Assembly (NCBI RefSeq): GCF_016903815.1
Contig: NZ_CP069972.1
DNA: 64,000 nucleotides
From: Escherichia coli
GTDB lineage: Bacteria > Pseudomonadota > Gammaproteobacteria > Enterobacterales > Enterobacteriaceae
Direction: 5' to 3' (one strand)
The position numbers and the translations under genes are program-made. Within the stretch, counting starts at the first letter, position 1. Every line of letters begins with the position of its first letter. Positions 4,433 through 49,058 of the stretch are shown here, piece by piece. The notes beneath the pieces were generated by a model. It saw only the letters and a list, made by a program, of their open reading frames with translations. It searched no databases and was not told where the DNA came from.

Positions 4433-5107
4433 ATGAGTGTTTATGGAGGGTTTATTATGCAAATGGTAAAAACAATCAATAGATATCCTGCTTGGTGGAC
4501 ATTATATTACGCCCTTAGATTTATATATTTCATAAGCATACCAGTGTTATCCATTTTTATTCTTTTCGGCGTGCTCTCCATTACATCTTCAAGATATGTG
4601 ACGCAAGAAGATTATATTTATACTTGCGTCTGTCTGTTTTTACTAATTGCCCCTGCAATATTGATGTATTCCCGAGCAAGCTCAAGAAAAGACAAAATAA
4701 AAAAAATTGTCGCGGAGATAAAAAACACCGGTTTTTATTCACCTGACAAAGAATATGAGGGACTATCTTTTACTCAGGGCGTCTATTTTGGCGTGGATAC
4801 CAAAAAAGGCACTATGCTGTATGCTCGTGCTTACCCTGGAAATATAATGGATATTATCGGCTTTGACATTGACAACTTCACACGCACTGTGACCGACGCC
4901 AAGACACTAGAGATTTATACAAAATACATAAATATACCAATGGTCTCAATTCCGTCAGGATGCATCCATCCCAAAATGATGGCGGATACAATGCATGCAA
5001 TGGCAGAAAGAGGATATGATTACCCTGTCGACTTTCCTCGCCTAATTCAGGAGAAGCGTAAGGAGTGGGAGCAGATTGCAGGCATGCCTGTAGCCGAAGT
5101 ATTTTAA
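4433..5107 (+). CDS. excA: Entry exclusion protein ExcA-like
   Basis: 224-aa ORF immediately after traY-like gene with N-terminal membrane segments; SD GGAGGG favours internal ATG at 4457 (216 aa). Confidence 0.5.
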
Positions 5108-5779: not shown

Positions 5780-5956
5780 ATGAATCTGGTAGACGCCTTT
5801 GTCAAAAAAGTAATATCCGGTCCATATGAAGAATATGGAAAATGGTGGATAGATGTCGAATACATTTCATGGGGTGTTCCCGGGAAAACAAGACTGATGT
5901 TTGACTCAAAGGAGCAGGCACTGGAAGTTAAGGAAGGGTACAAATTTTTAACGTGA
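5780..5956 (+). CDS. Hypothetical small protein (58 aa)
   Basis: ATG at 5780 preceded by AAGGA; followed by strong hairpin at 5971-6001; no recognised domain. Confidence 0.3.
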   Translation: MNLVDAFVKKVISGPYEEYGKWWIDVEYISWGVPGKTRLMFDSKEQALEVKEGYKFLT

Positions 5957-5970
5957 GATCTCTTTTTGTT

Positions 5971-6001
5971 AAAGGGCAGGAAGCGGTAACTCCCTGCCCT
6001 T
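5971..6001. terminator. Hairpin between convergent small genes
   Basis: 11-bp stem AAGGGCAGGGA / TCCCTGCCCTT with 9-nt loop; no clean U-run on either side. Confidence 0.35.
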
Positions 6002-6020
6002 AGTTACGTTTCCAGGCTTA

Positions 6021-6128
6021 TCAGTCGACAAGTTCCCGGATCAGTTCCAGAACAGCAATCAGCGCGTTTGCAACGGCAACTACTGCCCTGAGAACGATGA
6101 TTAACAGATTAATCATCCGCTTCTCCAT
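6021..6128 (-). CDS. Small hydrophobic peptide (35 aa), DinQ/TisB-like type I toxin candidate
   Basis: ATG at 6128-6126 to TGA at 6023-6021 encodes MEKRMINLLIIVLRAVVAVANALIAVLELIRELVD, one amphipathic helix; weak SD (GGTGA 12 nt upstream); too short for the ORF track. Confidence 0.45.
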   Translation of the reverse strand: MEKRMINLLIIVLRAVVAVANALIAVLELIRELVD

Positions 6129-6187
6129 CACTGGAGGAAATCACCGTTGCTTACTCTTACATTGCCTGTCACAACGGCACTTTCAGT

Positions 6188-6211
6188 GTTAGTTGAAAAG
6201 AGACTTCCTCC
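6188..6211 (-). promoter_or_regulatory. Predicted sRNA-binding site upstream of the toxin ORF
   Basis: 24-nt segment whose reverse complement (GGAGGAAGUCUCUUUUCAACUAAC) pairs with the 5' end of the sRNA at 6375-6398 with one G-U wobble; lies 61-84 nt upstream of the toxin ATG. Confidence 0.4.
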
Positions 6212-6339
6212 TGCCAGAGCACTGAACACAGCACCACCTGTTTGTTCAGCCAGGACTTAAAATCTTGCATCCATAGTCCCGATGGATATCACGGCAGAAG
6301 TGTCGCCAGACAGAGCTAACCTGCGGATTATAAGGATGG

Positions 6340-6368
6340 TTGCTATCAAATGAACAGCTCGCTATTAT
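6340..6368 (+). promoter_or_regulatory. Sigma70-type promoter for the predicted sRNA
   Basis: -35 TTGCTA (6340-6345), 17-nt spacer, -10 TATTAT (6363-6368); predicted TSS at about 6375. Confidence 0.5.
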
Positions 6369-6374
6369 AAGAAC

Positions 6375-6461
6375 GTTAGTTGAAAAGAGATTTCCTCCGG
6401 TCAGGGCCACCCACTCTGTAACGGAACAGTAAAAAAACCGACCTCACCAGTCGGTTTTTTT
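6375..6461 (+). ncRNA. Predicted ~86-nt sRNA, candidate type I antitoxin
   Basis: Starts at the 24-nt repeat GTTAGTTGAAAAGAGATTTCCTCC and ends at an intrinsic terminator (ACCGAC-loop-GTCGGT plus T7 at 6437-6461); no ORF. Confidence 0.5.
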
Positions 6462-6614
6462 ACATCTGTTGTTTCTCAAAATCCGTCCGACATGCCCGTC
6501 ACACCGGGGAAACTCATGCTCTGAATCAGAACCAACCATCTCAACTTTGCCGTCTCCTGAAAAAACTGGCACATTCAGTTCGATAACTACCCATAAATAC
6601 AGAGAGAAAATCCG

Positions 6615-6866
6615 ATGTCAGAAAAGTGGAGTAAAGAATTCGACTCTTGCTTTCAGGTGGGGAGCATAGAAGAAATTGCAGATGCTCTCGAGAAACGCAG
6701 CGGAAGCGAGGAAAATGCGTTAGCCATGCTGGCAATGACAGCCTTCACACTCATGACCCGACGTGGTATCTGCGAAATGCAGAACGTGGCCCCCGATGGC
6801 AAAGGCATTCGGCTGGAGCTAATCGGCTTCAGGGAAAATGAAACAATACCGGATACGCTTCATTGA
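6615..6866 (+). CDS. Hypothetical protein (83 aa)
   Basis: ATG with GAGAGA upstream; followed by hairpin GCGGCGGCAG/CTGCCGCCG at 6905-6928; no recognised domain. Confidence 0.4.
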   Translation: MSEKWSKEFDSCFQVGSIEEIADALEKRSGSEENALAMLAMTAFTLMTRRGICEMQNVAPDGKGIRLELIGFRENETIPDTLH

Positions 6867-6935: not shown

Positions 6936-7112
6936 CGTTAACGTTTAACTTCGTAGGCTAACGTTGCCACAAGCACTGTGTTTCCCTGCTGGAGCCGGAG
7001 TCCGCAAAGCGAATCCCTCACCATCCAGACAAAACACAGAATCGTCACACAGATGACGATTAACATCATTAAAAACGTTCGCTGTGGCATCATAGCCCCT
7101 CCATTGCCTTAC

Positions 7113-7206
7113 GGCGGTTATCGGGCTACTATAATGTTGTCTAGGCATTACAGTAGAGCCCTTGGTTGATTGATAAAAAAATCTCCAGGGGCTTTCTGCT
7201 GTATAC
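7113..7206. repeat. 85-bp direct repeat copy 1 with internal imperfect palindrome
   Basis: CGGGCTACTATAATG...CATTACAGTAGAGCCC TTGGTTGATTGA...CTCCAGGGGCTTTCTGCTGTATA; near-identical to 7421-7500. Confidence 0.6.
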
Positions 7207-7420
7207 CGTCCACAAAACGCTTTCGGCATACAGCCTCAAGCGCCCGCAGCTATTCTAACGACTTTCGTATCGGTAACAATCCTTTTAACCAGCCCCACAC
7301 ATCTTTCGGACATGGTGAGTACAAAAGGCTGCGCTCTCGAACATTTGACATTGAAAATGATTCAGGTGACAGCCTGAATGTAGCAGGAGTCCCCGTCCTT
7401 CTGGCATAGAAGATGTCAAC

Positions 7421-7500
7421 GGGCTACTATAATGTCGTTCACGCATTACAGTAGAGCCCTTGGTTGATTGACAAAAATCTCCAGGGGCTTTCTGCTGTAT
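7421..7500. repeat. 85-bp direct repeat copy 2, about 150 bp upstream of the RHH-HTH gene
   Basis: Near-identical to 7113-7206, a few substitutions and one short indel. Confidence 0.6.
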
Positions 7501-7658
7501 ATGGTTTAGTTAACAAAGAGAGCCAGTGTTCCACTGAGCAAAACCAGTAGCTATTCATGCTTACAATTATCTTCTCCATATCTGAAATAACTCAAACAGC
7601 CCAATAGAAACATATTGTTACATCTAAGATCTTGAAAAGACCTCTTTGAGAAATCAAT

Positions 7659-8645
7659 ATGAGATCACGGTATGTTGATAGGATAATATATATGAAGAAA
7701 CTATTGATTCGATTAATACCTGATGCAATATATGAGGCTCTGGAAAAGACAGCTCTGCATTCTGAACGCTCCCTGGAAGCACAGGCCAGATATATCCTTA
7801 GTTGCTCCGTAGATAATGAAAAACAATTAACTGGTGGTGAACGCTATCAAAGAGAAATAACCGCGCGTCTTAATCAAGCGTTATCAGAAGCTAATGAGGT
7901 CATAACAGCCATTAATCTTGTTCCCGCAAGAATTGCAGAACAATTAGGCCATCATGACGCCATAGAATCCGAAAATTGGTTCACCGGAAATGCTGTTCCT
8001 AGCTTTACAGAGCTTGACGAATTAAGCGATATCTTTGGATGCTCTCCAGATTGGTTAAAGTTTGGCGAAAATGTACCTTATCCAAAGAGTTCTAAAGGAA
8101 GGATAAACTGGAATCGTGGCGGAGAAAAAGATATCGATGCACTTTTAGAGCCTGACAACAAAGGTCGTAAAGTCTCATCTATTCATATTTTCAGGGTAAA
8201 TGAATCTGGCAATATACTAATACTGAGAGAATTTGAAAACAGCATAACTACAGATTTTTTCTCAACAAACCTTTACTTATCAGACAAAGAAAAAATAGGA
8301 CAGGGCGGATTCCACGACCTGGTCGATTTCCTTGTAATTTTACAATCCCTTTATTTAAAATATATAAATAGCAATCTGTTAGTGAAAAGCTATAACATTA
8401 GCCAATATGTACTGGATTCCTGTTATAAGAGCGGAGAAAAGCACCCCATAACTATATGTAGTGCAGGTGAGACAAGTACCTGGTGGGAAGACATATGGCA
8501 TGAAGACATGATAGCTCAATCGAGGAATAATGAGTCCTACTTCTGGGATGGTGACAAACCTCTTATTGATAGCCTTCATAAAGAACTTCAAAAAAATAAC
8601 AGATTAAAGCCAAACAGTGAGTTAGATATGCCACTAATTGGTTAA
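7659..8645 (+). CDS. Putative regulator: N-terminal ribbon-helix-helix, central XRE-type HTH, unknown ~190-aa C-terminal domain (328 aa)
   Basis: MKKLLIRLIPDAIYEALEKTALHSERSLEAQARYIL is RHH-like; NAVPSFTELDELSDIFGCSPDWLKFGE is HTH_XRE-like; low GC; alternative start at 7692. Confidence 0.5.
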   Translation: MRSRYVDRIIYMKKLLIRLIPDAIYEALEKTALHSERSLEAQARYILSCSVDNEKQLTGGERYQREITARLNQALSEANEVITAINLVPARIAEQLGHHDAIESENWFTGNAVPSFTELDELSDIFGCSPDWLKFGENVPYPKSSKGRINWNRGGEKDIDALLEPDNKGRKVSSIHIFRVNESGNILILREFENSITTDFFSTNLYLSDKEKIGQGGFHDLVDFLVILQSLYLKYINSNLLVKSYNISQYVLDSCYKSGEKHPITICSAGETSTWWEDIWHEDMIAQSRNNESYFWDGDKPLIDSLHKELQKNNRLKPNSELDMPLIG

Positions 8646-8862
8646 ACACCAATTAAAGATTATCTAGCTAAAACAACATCGTACACGCATACTGCAAAGC
8701 CCTTGGTGAGTTAATAGAAGAATTACTAAGGGCTTATAAAAAATATATACCCCCACATTGGTGACACATTAAAATATTTTTTGTTGATGTGTTACCAGCC
8801 TGACCCAAAAACAATTTTTAATCTTTCCGTTCGATTTAAATTCCAGAAATGGAGACTTTGTC

Positions 8863-10071
8863 ATGTCTTACAATCGACAGCCTGTCGCAGAAGATCCTAT
8901 GCAGATATGGGGCGCTGTTGGTGTCCTTCTTATCCTGCTGCTATTCGTCATATGGTTATTCTTGCCGGAAGTGGTTTACACCAGCTGCCTGATTCTTCAT
9001 ACCTTATGGGGACTGGTCGACTGGGGACCATTTCATAACTATGCAGCACCACGATACAACCTGCTTGCCATGACCGGTAACAACGCCGCCAACATAAGCT
9101 ATAGCCAGTGGGTTAACGTCATGGAACAGACCATAGGTATTCTGTGGATGTACCTCTTACCTGTGACACTCTGGTGTTTGTGGGAATGGTATCAACATCC
9201 GGGACAAAGCCGTTTCACCCGCAGACCAGTAGATATTACCCGACTGCCACACATCTTTGCTTCGTTATCCCCTGCTATCGCCCCTGTACTGGCAGATGGT
9301 GATCCGAAAAAACTCTTTCATGGTGGTAAACGACCTGAACGGCGGGTTGCTCTCACCCCGGAAGCATTTGTCGAACAGCATACTCTCATCACCAATATGC
9401 AGCTCGATGTTGCAGCTGCAAGACGATGTTTCATGGCCCAGTTGGGTAAACCTTTAACGTCCTGGAAAGACATGGCACCACATGAAAAAGCGCTCTTTGC
9501 CATATTTGGCCTTCAGTATTTCCTGGATGATCGGAAGGCAGCATTAAAGCTCATGGATACACTGAACCTCTCATGCAGAATTAAAAGCAAACGGGACAGC
9601 GGGAAATTCTGTACCCCTGTTTATTCATTGGCCAAATCAGCTTTCCAGAGCGTGATTAAAAGCAACGGAGCACAGCAATGGCTGAAACAACATCGCTACG
9701 TCCGCAGTGGGCTGGTCTGGCTGTATGCACATGACCTGCGGCTTACGCCACCCAACTGGATTTGGCTGAAAGGCGTGGACAGAACGCTGTTTTATGCATT
9801 ACACCGCGCCAATACCACGAAAGGATTTATTGAAGGCGCTGGCGTGGTGGCCGTTGCACGTGCAGAGGCCGAAGCCATGCGTTTTGGTCTTCCCTGCCCT
9901 GAACCCTGTGTTGATGAAGCGGTGGAAGGCTTACGGCGGGATATGCTCAGTCTCGGTCTTATCTGGGATGAACCACAACCAGATCGCGACCGGAAACGCC
10001 GCATCCTGACCAACTGGTCCCTCACCGACGACATCCTGCCCCGCACACCTGCTACAGACAACGAATTCTGA
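8863..10071 (+). CDS. trbA: TrbA-like conjugal transfer protein (402 aa)
   Basis: RBS GGAGA; N-terminal TM segment; first of three co-oriented genes between excA island and nikB, matching R64 trbABC order and sizes (recollection). Confidence 0.6.
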   Translation: MSYNRQPVAEDPMQIWGAVGVLLILLLFVIWLFLPEVVYTSCLILHTLWGLVDWGPFHNYAAPRYNLLAMTGNNAANISYSQWVNVMEQTIGILWMYLLPVTLWCLWEWYQHPGQSRFTRRPVDITRLPHIFASLSPAIAPVLADGDPKKLFHGGKRPERRVALTPEAFVEQHTLITNMQLDVAAARRCFMAQLGKPLTSWKDMAPHEKALFAIFGLQYFLDDRKAALKLMDTLNLSCRIKSKRDSGKFCTPVYSLAKSAFQSVIKSNGAQQWLKQHRYVRSGLVWLYAHDLRLTPPNWIWLKGVDRTLFYALHRANTTKGFIEGAGVVAVARAEAEAMRFGLPCPEPCVDEAVEGLRRDMLSLGLIWDEPQPDRDRKRRILTNWSLTDDILPRTPATDNEF

Positions 10072-28316: not shown

Positions 28317-30650
28317 GTGCGACAGGAAGTCGCTTAACGTATTGTTTTACATTGATAAAACCAGCTATCCCATTAGCTGTAGCCTACCGGGACAGGCGTT
28401 GCCGGCAACGGCGGGGTCTGAAGCTCCCGGGACAACGAGAGCCGGGCGTCAGCCCGGGTAATGCCCCGTGAGGGGCTTTACCTTGCTGCAAGCATCATGC
28501 GGCAGGAGAGCAAGGCTGGTCAGAAGGGTTAACACATGTGAACTGTTGATAAACACCGTTATCGGCAACAGGCCAAAGATGCTGACAGGCCTGAACCAAA
28601 AGGTACGGGGTCCGGTTGCTACCTCGCGCACAGGGAGCACATGGGCGCAGAGACCCCCGGTGAAGAGACAGAACCCGCCCTGACCCTCTGTATGTTAAGC
28701 GGAACCTGGTAAACCCGTATCGCTGCCTCACAGGCAGGTGAACCGCAAGGAACACTGTTAGCGGTGCGGGCATAGGAGGACGGAAAAAGCGAATGCCCGG
28801 CTGTAATAACCGGGATACGGGGCAGGTTCCCCGACGCGAAAGCGGGCAGACTTCCGTCTGGTCTTTAATTGCATGAAAAGCTGTAAAGCAGTCAAAAGGA
28901 TATCAGCGAGATGAATACACACATCAGTGTGTCCACGATACCCCACCCGACAGGCTGGCACACCATAAACTGGAAAGCATGCCATGCCCGGGTGCGAAAG
29001 CTACAGTTACGGATTGCAAAGGCAACCCGACAGCAACAATGGCGGCAGGTCAGAGAACTACAGCGCATCCTCACCCGCTCATTCTCCGGCAAAGCCGTGG
29101 CTGTCAGGCGTGTAACTGAAAATACCGGTAAAAGGACACCCGGTATTGACGGAAAAATATGGCACACACCGAAGGAGAAATGGGAAGGAATATGCAGCCT
29201 GAATCTGTGTGGTTACAGGCCACAGCCACTACGGCGAATACATATCCCAAAATCAAACGGCAAAACGCGACCGCTGGGCATACCCACAATGAGGGACCGG
29301 GCCATGCAGGCACTGTGGCTGCTGGCTCTGGAACCCGTATCCGAGACCACTGCTGACCATAACAGCTATGGTTTCAGACCAATGCGCAGCACGCATGACG
29401 CCATTGAGTCCATTTTTCTGCGGATGAGCCAGAAAGTATCGCCCAAATGGATACTGGAGGGCGATATTAAAGGGTGCTTCGATAACATCAGCCATGACTG
29501 GCTGCTTTCCCATATTCCGATGGACAGGAGACTGCTTAAAAAATGGTTGAAAGCAGGTTACATGGAAAGAGGCGTGTTTAACCATACGAACAGCGGGACA
29601 CCGCAGGGAGGCATCATATCCCCTGTTCTCGCCAACATGGCTCTGGACGGACTGGAGAAGGAACTGATGCAAACGTTCAGGAAAAGTGGTTATCACAGTG
29701 CAAAGCACCAGGTGAATTATGTGAGATATGCTGATGATTTCATCTGTTCAGGCAGCTCCCGTGAATTGCTGGAAAATGAGGTCAGACCACTGATTGCAGC
29801 TTTCATGCGCGAACGAGGGCTGGAACTGTCGGAAGAAAAAACAGCGATCACACATATAGATAAAGGCTTCGACTTTTTAGGGCAGAACGTCAGGAAGTAC
29901 AACGGTAAAATGCTGATTAAACCGTCGAAGAAAAACCTGAAGAACTTCCTCTGTAAAGTCAGAGAAATAATTAAACGCAATCCGACGCTCCCGGCATGGA
30001 AACTGATAGGCCAGCTAAACCCGGTGATCCGGGGATGGGCTACCTATCACCGACACGTCGTGGCGAAAGAAACATTTAATTATGTCGACACCCAAATCTG
30101 GCGAGCTATATGGCGATGGTGTGTAAGACGGCATCCCCGGAAAGGATTGCGGTGGATCGCCGGACGATACTTCTCCTTTGAAGGCAGGCGCTGGATCTTT
30201 AAAGCCATAACCCCGGAAGGGAAAATTCTGACACTCTTCCGGGCAATGGAAACACCGATAAAGCGCCATATAAAAATCAAAGGCGAAGCAACACCATACA
30301 CCCCCGGAATGGAAATCTACTTTGAACGTCGTCTGGATCTAATCTGGAAAGGCAAATCAAAGAAGATGAAGACAGTAGTTCAACTCTGGAAGAGGCAGGG
30401 GAAACACTGTCCGCAGTGCGGACAACTCATAACCAACCAGACCGGATGGAATATACATCACCGGATCAGGAAAGTTATGGGCGGCAGTGACGAACTGACC
30501 AATCTCGAGTTGTTACATCCGAACTGCCACCGACAGTTACACAGCAGGGAAGCCGGTGCTCACCGAAAGCACTTATAAAGGCTTGAGCGGAGTGCGGGGA
30601 AACTCGCACGCTCCGTTCTTAGGGGGCGGCGGCGCAGCAATGTGCCGCTG
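28317..30650 (+). mobile_element. Group II intron (about 2.3 kb) with intron-encoded RT/maturase/HNH protein
   Basis: 5' GTGCG at 28317; about 590 nt of upstream structured RNA; ORF in domain IV; domain V hairpin GAGCGGAGTGCGGGGAAACTCGCACGCTCCGTTC at 30585-30618; 3' end approximate. Confidence 0.75.
28911..30578 (+). CDS. Group II intron-encoded protein: reverse transcriptase, maturase, HNH endonuclease (555 aa)
   Basis: RT motifs (GIDG, YADD) and C-terminal Cys/His HNH segment (CPQCGQ...HHRIRKVMGGSD...HPNCH). Confidence 0.85.
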   Translation: MNTHISVSTIPHPTGWHTINWKACHARVRKLQLRIAKATRQQQWRQVRELQRILTRSFSGKAVAVRRVTENTGKRTPGIDGKIWHTPKEKWEGICSLNLCGYRPQPLRRIHIPKSNGKTRPLGIPTMRDRAMQALWLLALEPVSETTADHNSYGFRPMRSTHDAIESIFLRMSQKVSPKWILEGDIKGCFDNISHDWLLSHIPMDRRLLKKWLKAGYMERGVFNHTNSGTPQGGIISPVLANMALDGLEKELMQTFRKSGYHSAKHQVNYVRYADDFICSGSSRELLENEVRPLIAAFMRERGLELSEEKTAITHIDKGFDFLGQNVRKYNGKMLIKPSKKNLKNFLCKVREIIKRNPTLPAWKLIGQLNPVIRGWATYHRHVVAKETFNYVDTQIWRAIWRWCVRRHPRKGLRWIAGRYFSFEGRRWIFKAITPEGKILTLFRAMETPIKRHIKIKGEATPYTPGMEIYFERRLDLIWKGKSKKMKTVVQLWKRQGKHCPQCGQLITNQTGWNIHHRIRKVMGGSDELTNLELLHPNCHRQLHSREAGAHRKHL

Positions 30651-30856
30651 CTACCCGACCAATAAAAGACAGCCAGAAACGGTGACAGTGTCACGGAATA
30701 TCACACCTGTTCCCTGCATACAGCCATACACTACCTTCTGACCGGAAAGCCGGGCCGGCAGCGCCGCAGGCGCTGCACCCCGCGTTTCCGGCAGGCGTCA
30801 GCCTGCCAGGGGTTTTCGCGCGGGCTGACAGGCGGCCTCCACCGCCTGCCCCTGTA

Positions 30857-47905: not shown

Positions 47906-47982
47906 AAGCTGTCGCTTATGGCGGAGCGATTGTGCCGTGTATTTATACACTGCACAGGGTTGAATCTCTGGTACGGTTTCAT
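47893..47982 (-). CDS. repY: Leader peptide RepY (29 aa)
   Basis: ATG at 47982 to TGA at 47893 encodes MKPYQRFNPVQCINTRHNRSAISDSLWQV; stop overlaps repZ start region. Confidence 0.65.
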   Translation of the reverse strand: MKPYQRFNPVQCINTRHNRSAISDSLWQV

Positions 47983-47994
47983 TATACTTTACCC

Positions 47995-48070
47995 GTATTC
48001 TGTGAGGCCCCCACTATCTTTCGTCGTTCCGCCAAGTTCGTAAGAAAGATAGTGGGGGTTTTCCTTTTAT
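47995..48070 (+). ncRNA. inc: Inc antisense RNA (about 70 nt) of the repZ replicon
   Basis: Promoter TTGAAT-17-TATACT (47960-47988); 15-bp stem CCCCCACTATCTTTC/GAAAGATAGTGGGGG with loop containing CGCCAA, then T-run; antisense to repZ leader. Confidence 0.6.
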
Positions 48071-49058
48071 GGCTTCCGGAACATCTTCAGTCTTCTGACT
48101 TACTGCCCGTACATGCCATCTCTCCTGAATGCCTTATGGCGCATTCTGCCGTCCGGCTTTCGCCGCTTTGCTCCACAGAGTGCCACCCTCTGCACAGCTA
48201 ATAACAGCCGAAATATACCCGCTTTACGTTAATTTGAAAAGCATTACAACGATCTCTTCTCTTCCAGTGCCTCCTCACTGATACCTCTAATAAGTTAATC
48301 TTGACCTGCGTCAAAAAAATAAAATCTATTTTTAAAAGCAGATTTTTCTGCTTTAGATCTTTCTTTTGGATTAAAAGATCGACTTTTGTCCTACTCACGA
48401 TCATTTATCTTACAACCGATCTACCTAACAGAATAATATTCTGTTTTAATGCAATTAAACGATCTAAATAACCTTTAAAAAATCATTTTGTAGATCATTC
48501 GATCGTAAATAGAATAATTCTTAGATGATAAAACCATTTGTTACACAACCCGCCAATTGTGTAACAACAGCCTCTACAAGAGCATATTTGTTCATATGTT
48601 CGTCAGAACTGCGGATTGTCTGGACGAGGGTCAGACACCGTTTCGTGCATATGGACCAGCATGTTCGAACGCCACAAAGCAGAAGCATCATGCCTGGATC
48701 GCTTCGGCGCGGAGCGTTAAGTTTTGACGCTTTTTTGTATGTTTTTTAAGCTGTTAGTTGACTCGGTGCGTTATACTAAGTACCCTTTACTGGTCACAGG
48801 CAAAACTGTGATCGGGCGTAGGAACCCGCGTAGTCATCGTCGGCGCAGAAGTTAATTTCTTCATTTGGCGTCGTTTTTTGCCATACCATAAAGACAGGAA
48901 CTTGTATTTCTTGTCGTCATCTATGGTAGCTCAGGCGGGGCAGGCATTAGCCTGGCCGGTTTCCGATGACGCCGGTATTCCTACCCCCGTCTGGGCTATC
49001 ACCAATGAGCGTAGGAACTCGGTGATAGCGTTTTTAGTTGTCATCGGAGACCGTTGCT

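Follow-up and report, generated by a model that had tools for sequence, protein, structure and literature searches.

The locus described here, at positions 5950–6480 of a 64 000-nucleotide (nt) stretch of Escherichia coli contig NZ_CP069972.1 (the window), has its closest described relatives among the type I toxin–antitoxin systems of the dinQ family. For dinQ of E. coli K-12, both a switch between four leader elements (1–4) and a mechanism based on agrB and RNase III have been demonstrated (PMC5066626). The dinQ-like (dql) genes dqlA and dqlB were named in 2016 by Kristiansen et al.; they are found on natural enterobacterial plasmids, where they are often unannotated or given too long an N-terminus (PMC5066626). 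DqlB proteins of pOXA-48 (IncL) and pOXA-484 (IncX3) are toxic, and cells are rescued from them by agrB (PMC12365149; PMC12317039, 2025). The pOXA-484 locus stabilizes a test plasmid, and the pOXA-48 locus kills upon plasmid loss (PMC12365149; PMC12317039). Carriage of dqlB has been reported in 67.4% of IncI1 plasmids (PMC12365149), and the gene is listed for the IncI1 plasmid pTF2 (PMC12211044). The tisB/istR-1 and zorO/orzO systems share the same logic, with a small hydrophobic toxin, a long 5′ untranslated region (UTR) and a divergent trans-acting small RNA (sRNA) that acts above the ribosome-binding site (RBS) (PMC5066626).

With a probability of roughly 0.9, we consider the region 5950–6480 of the window to be the dqlB/agrB type I toxin–antitoxin module of an IncI1 plasmid, in the allele carried by plasmid R64. 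The peptide, the RNA and the pairing between the toxin leader and the sRNA all match a known family, so the module is already known and not new: it is named, it is covered by curated protein and RNA models and by RefSeq annotation, and homologues from two further plasmid groups have been validated. The initial annotation, made from the letters of the DNA, had called a type I toxin–antitoxin module in which a DinQ-like peptide is accompanied by a divergently transcribed RNA that acts in trans by base pairing to the toxin leader. This call is borne out by matches above threshold to the DqlB and AgrB models and by DNA homology. The present analysis establishes the family membership of both genes, the RNA pairing, the alternative helices of the leader and their covariation.

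The element that hosts the module is an IncI1-type conjugative plasmid, in which the module is located between excA (4433–5107) and trbA (8863–10071). The 531 bp of the region are 100% identical to R64 (NC_005014.1), where RefSeq places the dqlB coding sequence (CDS; WP_001303310.1) at the equivalent of window positions 6021–6116 on the minus strand, and 483 plasmid records match the region at an identity of at least 99%. The same neighbors (a HEAT-repeat gene, a Hok/Gef gene or trbA) flank the module in four of five related I-complex and pESI plasmids. The view that the module belongs to an accessory island and is not a backbone feature does not agree with its presence in R64, its recurrence at the same site in these four plasmids and its reported frequency among IncI1 plasmids.

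The modules of pOXA-48 and pOXA-484 belong to the same family as that of R64 according to the curated models, and their peptides are identical to R64 DqlB at 25 of 31 residues. In all three cases a divergent trans-acting sRNA uses its 5′ ∼33–35 nt to pair with the toxin 5′ UTR above the RBS, and the module is borne on a large conjugative enterobacterial plasmid. However, the pairing core differs completely in sequence from that of R64 and represents another specificity class. The positions also differ, as the pOXA-48-type record adjoins trbC (repA–trbC according to PMC12365149), whereas the R64-type module resides in the excA–trbA interval next to pnd.

The DqlB peptide and its RNA partner

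The minus-strand open reading frame (ORF) that ends at 6021 is open from a GTG at 6131 (36 amino acids, aa) and contains an in-frame ATG at 6128 (35 aa). In a search of NCBIfam, the peptide matched the equivalog model NF041473, 'DinQ-like type I toxin DqlB', with 66.4 bits (E 1.4e-18; cutoff 35), and profile positions 1–31 of 31 aligned to residues 5–35 of the 35-aa ORF. The DinQ model NF041472 gave 20.1 bits (E 5.8e-4), which is under its 30-bit cutoff. Judged by these scores, the peptide is a member of a related subfamily and not DinQ itself. A Pfam search returned no family for the peptide even at E ≤ 10, which is uninformative because Pfam has no model for DqlB.

The real start codon is very likely the fifth codon of the 35-aa ORF, the ATG at 6116–6114, which would give a product of 31 aa. 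The GTG start codon of K-12 dinQ aligns with this ATG, and the GGAG at 6126–6123 aligns with the Shine–Dalgarno (SD) sequence of dinQ (G184–G187; coordinates from PMC5066626). The 35-aa ORF at 6128–6021 proposed in the initial annotation is indeed present, but its probable product is the 31-aa form from ATG 6116, as indicated by RefSeq, NF041473 and the dinQ alignment. The SD that had been described as weak for ATG 6128 is explained by the fact that GGAG serves ATG 6116. A longer product of 35 or 36 aa, initiated at ATG 6128 or GTG 6131, would agree with a reading frame that is open from 6131 and holds ATG 6128 in frame, but we regard it as very unlikely. No SD precedes 6128, and in the longer form GGAG would fall within codons 1–2. 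In K-12 dinQ and in IncL/M the upstream ATG is not in frame, and IncX4/X1 have a CTG in its place; both the DqlB model and RefSeq begin at MINLL. The extended N-termini with which, according to Kristiansen et al., Dql peptides are often mis-annotated (PMC5066626) also speak against it.

The mean Kyte–Doolittle hydropathy is 2.50 for residues 1–23 and 0.16 for residues 24–31, which form the charged tail ELIRELVD. This pattern fits a single membrane helix; instead of the amphipathic helix that had been proposed, the profile shows a hydrophobic membrane-type helix followed by a charged C-terminal tail. Across incompatibility (Inc) groups, 25–30 of the 31 DqlB residues are identical. The resemblance to DinQ that was noted in the ALIxxLELIR segment holds, with ALIA(V/L)LELIR common to both peptides and 11 of 17 residues identical in a BLASTP alignment of the C-terminal half.

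The other half of the earlier description as 'DinQ/TisB-like' did not stand, as the peptide is related to DinQ and not to TisB. No TisB model was found at E ≤ 10 in the NCBIfam search of the peptide, and no IstR match at E ≤ 1 in the Rfam search. Pairwise alignment with a TisB sequence (a single comparison) gave 30% identity (E 0.002), which looks like shared hydrophobic composition, and membership in that family was rejected. Membership in the ZorO/OrzO family was likewise rejected, since the Rfam OrzO-P match (33.6 bits, E 0.013; gathering score 60) consists mostly of the terminator hairpin.

On the plus strand, the Rfam AgrB model (RF02891) matched over its full length (1–84 of 84) at 6376–6463 with 55.3 bits (gathering score 40), and the match was also above threshold in a scan of the whole 64-kb window. 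The plus-strand unit of the initial annotation was recovered by the consensus scan and Rfam, with the promoter at 6340–6368, the start at 6375/6376 and the terminator at 6429–6463. The promoter aligns with the K-12 agrB/agrA promoter (TTGCAA ... TAGTAT), and the distance of the start from the −10 element equals that of K-12 agrB, in line with the AgrB model beginning at 6376. The predicted fold of the sRNA comprises a single-stranded 5′ pairing region, a small internal hairpin and the intrinsic terminator, which has a 14-bp stem. Among related plasmids, the IncX3 sRNA passes the AgrB threshold (47.8 bits), whereas the sRNAs of IncL/M and of the rep_cluster_1368 locus (L014) miss an E value of 0.01 against this model, unlike that of R64.

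At the DNA level, the K-12 and R64 loci can be aligned on both sides. The toxin side shows 75% mean column identity with dinQ over a segment that spans the −10 element, the start motif, leader elements 2–4, the SD, the start codon and the terminator, and the sRNA side, including the promoters, shows 80% with agrB/agrA. The two systems differ in the length of the toxin (27 aa in dinQ and 31 aa in dqlB, the latter scoring under the DinQ equivalog cutoff), in the number of sRNA genes (an agrA/agrB pair in K-12 and a single gene in R64) and in setting, since the R64 module is plasmid-borne with an expected role in plasmid addiction, whereas K-12 dinQ belongs to SOS physiology. Coordinates of the module and of other features of the window are given in Table 1.

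Table 1. Elements of the dqlB/agrB module and other annotated features of the 64-kb window
Feature	Position	Strand	Evidence and remarks
dqlB mRNA terminator stem-loop	5972–6001	−	Inverted repeat; aligns with dinQ terminator region, ...GCCCTTTAAC
dqlB coding sequence, 31 aa + stop, MINLLIIVLRAVVAVANALIAVLELIRELVD	6021–6116	−	NF041473 match, RefSeq CDS, dinQ start alignment
SD GGAG (element 4 of dinQ model)	6123–6126	−	Read from sequence; 6-nt spacer to ATG 6116
SD-sequestering hairpin CUCCA-GUGA-UGGAG (elements 3:4, translation off)	6123–6136	−	Folding with blocked antisense site; covariation
Element 3, GAUUUCCUCC (anti-SD; partner is element 2 or SD)	6133–6142	−	Folding, covariation; detected as inverted repeat
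Antisense target site in dqlB 5′ UTR	6188–6220	−	71 nt upstream of start codon; includes element 2
Element 2, GGAGGAAGUC	6202–6211	−	Predicted to pair with element 3 if sRNA absent; lies in antisense site
Candidate LexA box, CTG-N10-CAG, ACCTGTTTGTTCAGCCAGGA	6238–6257		PMC12211044; heterology index 11.64; function doubtful
dqlB promoter, −10 TATAAT (6332–6327) and start G6320	6320–6332	−	Predicted by homology only
AgrB-like RNA promoter, TTGCTA-17-TATTAT	6340–6368	+	Consensus scan, 9/12 matches
AgrB-family antitoxin sRNA, ∼88 nt	6375–6463	+	Rfam RF02891 match, fold, terminator
Small conserved hypothetical ORFs flanking the module	5780–5956 (58 aa); 6615–6866 (83 aa)	+	Open reading frames
pndA toxin, Hok/Gef family	6938–7093	−	Hok/Gef CDS
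sok-family antisense RNA region of pnd	7088–7245	−	Rfam sok, 134 bits
sok-like sub-threshold match	7394–7601	−	38.4 bits; gathering score 59
Group II intron domains	D1-D4-7, 28361–28510; Intron_gpII, 30583–30659	+	Rfam; 122 bits and 60 bits, respectively
repZ regulatory pseudoknot PK-repZ	47918–48066	−	194 bits; marks IncI1 replicon
C4 antisense RNA match	48919–49006	+	77.5 bits; ∼0.9 kb from PK-repZ

Antisense pairing and the leader switch

The 5′ end of the sRNA and the toxin leader are connected by a direct repeat, which extends over 33 nt with 88% identity (6188–6220 and 6375–6407). The repeat had been described as 24 nt long, forming a 24-bp duplex with one G-U wobble; it is real and antisense to the leader, but when the two copies are read side by side the duplex is 33 nt long and contains three G-U wobbles and one G·A mismatch. 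When the 24-mer was searched for with up to three mismatches, only these two sites were found in 64 kb, and none would be expected from 100 shuffles. The site on the leader, 6220–6188, lies upstream of the RBS and contains element 2 (GGAGGAAGUC), so the sRNA 5′ end pairs over this element as in the dinQ/dql family. The energy of the duplex between the 5′ 36 nt of the sRNA and the toxin leader is −55.5 kcal/mol (shuffled sequences, −25.3 ± 2.9; z = −10.6), and the next best unrelated site for the sRNA 5′ end in the whole window reaches −35.9 kcal/mol. The 5′ 36 nt were used for all duplex energies; pairing the entire sRNA with the entire mRNA gave an over-extended, loop-rich structure.

Of the four elements in the dinQ model, three (2, 3 and 4) can be read in the sequence of the dqlB leader. 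In that model, element 1 at the 5′ end is paired with element 2 in the primary transcript, and its removal by processing turns translation on; the corresponding 5′ region is the most variable part among dql genes (PMC5066626). The 2:3 helix is present in the minimum free energy folds of the full-length mRNA and of all truncated forms in the absence of the sRNA. When leader nucleotides 100–133, which correspond to the sRNA site, were blocked, the SD entered the 3:4 hairpin and the probability of its being unpaired fell to 0.01 or less. Within the limits of such folding, blocking the site reproduces the published agrB mechanism, in which the RNA closes the SD.

The leader helices were further analyzed for covariation in 12 loci (R64, K-12, I-gamma/K1, pESI, K2/Z, FIB+I-gamma, X3, X4, X1, two L/M and one other). 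For the four helices tested, which were derived from the R64 row and are favored somewhat by this choice, 89.3% of cells were paired, compared with 35.7–64.7% in slid controls, and 14 pairs were changed on both sides. Such double changes were observed in 4 of 10 pairs of the 2:3 helix and in 4 of 5 pairs of the 3:4 helix. The dqlB leader can be drawn with the two mutually exclusive helices of the dinQ/dql family, 2:3 with the SD open and 3:4 with the SD closed, each with covariation.

Plasmid groups differ strongly in the variable core at the 5′ end of the sRNA. Among nine loci, the mean pairing energy was −52.9 kcal/mol for cognate and −34.0 kcal/mol for non-cognate combinations, and the best target was the cognate one for eight of the nine sRNAs. 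A non-cognate target was equal to or better than the cognate one solely within three clusters: R64/IncFIB+I-gamma, I-gamma/K1 with K2/Z, and X4/X1. In the loci that have no Rfam AgrB match (IncL/M and one other), a plus-strand partner was found at −54 to −61 kcal/mol; in the IncL/M search the leader itself was excluded to avoid trivial antisense pairing. A conserved peptide combined with a co-varying sRNA and target is what would be expected if selection maintained a functional antisense pair.

Two genes for AgrB-like sRNAs are present in some IncK2/Z plasmids. In one of them (NZ_CP116073.1), the second sRNA (1320–1407) has an R64-type 5′ end and pairs with the R64 dqlB leader at −59.8 kcal/mol and with the toxin leader of its own locus at −36.9 kcal/mol. 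No second toxin was annotated or detected within the fetched 2-kb stretch of this plasmid, and the R64-type sRNA may be an orphan antitoxin or a remnant. In CP044022.1, AgrB-like sRNAs are located at 329–416 and 1058–1145 and apparently represent two modules in tandem.

The toxin transcript and the candidate LexA site

The dqlB transcript is predicted to start at G6320, 7 nt past the −10 element. This position agrees with the +1 of K-12 dinQ in its distance from the −10 and in the GTTAGCTCTG start motif (dinQ coordinates from PMC5066626), and both the −10 and the start motif are conserved in 10 loci. In the comparison of R64 with K-12 dinQ, the coordinates place the toxin and sRNA starts ∼55 bp apart, and the two promoters therefore interleave. 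At the other end of the transcript, the dqlB terminator has a weak T-run, which is why the stem-loop was missing from a simple terminator scan. The 58-aa flanking ORF ends 16 nt before this stem-loop, which could terminate transcription on both strands.

Chromosomal dinQ is under LexA control (PMC5066626), with the LexA box lying over the −10 element, and R64 dqlB could by this precedent be an SOS-induced module for a membrane peptide, repressed by LexA, rather than a constitutive addiction module. A candidate LexA site has been reported for dqlB of the IncI1 plasmid pTF2, with a heterology index of 11.64 that is below the authors' limit of 15 (PMC12211044), and its sequence is identical to window positions 6238–6257. 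However, at the position homologous to the dinQ box, R64 reads TATAAT-CCGCAG in the alignment and no CTG-N10-CAG lies over the dqlB −10. LexA control at the dqlB promoter was rejected on this ground; a LexA operator at the toxin promoter is a property of dinQ that is not stated as required for dql genes. The reported candidate lies instead inside the predicted transcript, at about +64 to +83 in the 5′ UTR, rather than over the promoter. The CTG and CAG of this candidate are parts of the conserved leader motifs AAGTCCTGG and ACAGGTGGTGC, which form a covarying RNA stem-loop, and the constraints on this stem-loop explain the presence of both trinucleotides. The aligned K-12 sequence has CGG in place of the CAG half-site. 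In addition, no change in DqlB protein was reported for pTF2, in which DqlB was undetected by proteomics (PMC12211044). SOS control of the IncI1 dqlB allele is judged unlikely from these sequence features, and we give an SOS-induced module of the dinQ kind correspondingly little credence.

Neighboring features and the role of the module on the plasmid

A second type I module, pnd (6938–7245, minus strand), is located ∼0.5 kb from dqlB/agrB, so that two type I modules lie side by side on the plasmid. The pndA/pndB system is also a type I toxin–antitoxin stability module, but it belongs to an unrelated family (hok/sok) and has an antisense RNA that is encoded in cis, overlapping the toxin leader, whereas agrB is trans-acting and repeat-based. 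The sub-threshold sok-like match overlaps a 46-aa ORF (7439–7579) that has a C-terminal motif in common with the pnd leader ORF, and the segment 7394–7601 has the appearance of a shortened copy of the pnd leader that lacks a toxin.

The window departs from R64 at ∼7250–8870, with trbA starting at 8863 here and near 7382 if it followed R64. This variant was found at an identity of at least 99% in 94 plasmid records. Within the extra ∼1.5 kb is a 328-aa ORF (7659–8645, plus strand) whose N-terminus carries a FitA-like ribbon-helix-helix domain (Pfam E 3e-6). This ORF had no NCBIfam match above cutoff (DicA, 16.9 bits, is far below threshold) and no PADLOC match; the 58-aa and 83-aa ORFs that flank the module likewise had no NCBIfam or PADLOC match. 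Farther away, the two group II intron domains indicate an intron inserted in the plasmid at 28361–30659. The C4 antisense RNA family, matched near the replicon, is known from P1/P7-type phage immunity regions.

In the proposed mechanism, the minus strand would produce a long-leader mRNA that starts at 6320 and encodes DqlB, and the plus strand an AgrB-family RNA of ∼88 nt from a promoter interleaved with that of the toxin. As in dinQ, the sRNA would use its first ∼33 nt to pair with the toxin leader at 6220–6188, over element 2. When the sRNA is absent, element 2 would pair with the anti-SD element 3 (GAUUUCCUCC); when it is bound, element 3 would be freed and fold onto the GGAG of the SD (hairpin 6136–6123), and translation would be blocked. 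The sRNA–leader duplex would be a likely RNase III substrate, again as in dinQ. Judged by the homologous systems, the most likely role of the module on the plasmid is addiction: upon plasmid loss the antitoxin RNA would be lost, and cells would be killed or arrested by DqlB (post-segregational killing). We infer the transcript ends, the toxicity of the IncI1 allele, the relative stabilities of the two RNAs and this addiction role.

Several points weigh against the assignment of a functional addiction module. In the folds of 5′-truncated mRNA, the probability that the SD is unpaired is just 0.1–0.4, and the open state of the SD is not clearly reproduced. The full-length fold pairs the 5′ segment CUUCUGCC with the SD region and not with element 2, so that the 1:2 'lock' of dinQ is not reproduced for this allele. 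The −10 element of the toxin promoter is perfect but the −35 is poor, and a simple promoter scan did not report this promoter; the transcript ends are predictions from sequence. Addiction would also require an antitoxin RNA that is less stable than the toxin mRNA. In the literature searched, experiments on the IncI1 allele were not found, and the failure of proteomics to detect DqlB of pTF2 (PMC12211044) counts here as well.

The weak −35 and the lack of a direct experiment on this allele would also agree with a decayed, non-functional remnant that is merely carried along with the IncI1 backbone, and the truncated hok/sok-like remnant nearby demonstrates that decay does occur in this region. 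Such a remnant is nevertheless extremely improbable. The ORF is intact and distant plasmid groups share 25–30 of its 31 residues, the RNA helices and the sRNA–target pairing are kept by compensatory change, the region recurs in the 483 plasmid records, and homologues are functional (PMC12365149; PMC12317039).

A two-part extension of the assignment to dqlB/agrB is put forward tentatively, as possible rather than probable: that the locus has lost the SOS operator of chromosomal dinQ and is a constitutive addiction module in which interleaved promoters compete, and that the variable core of the sRNA sets the specificity classes of agrB/dqlB. The divergent promoters would compete for RNA polymerase, and the published 'LexA box' would be a by-product of the conserved RNA stem-loop. 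Either part leaves the identity of the module as dqlB/agrB unaltered. If this extension is true, a plasmid that encodes an additional sRNA from another class could neutralize the toxin of a competitor. Specialists may find use in the start codon and the extent of the pairing, in the lack of a LexA box at the promoter of the IncI1 allele, and in the specificity classes of sRNA and target. More generally, dqlB/agrB is a stability determinant that is common on resistance plasmids and, owing to its tiny size, easily overlooked.

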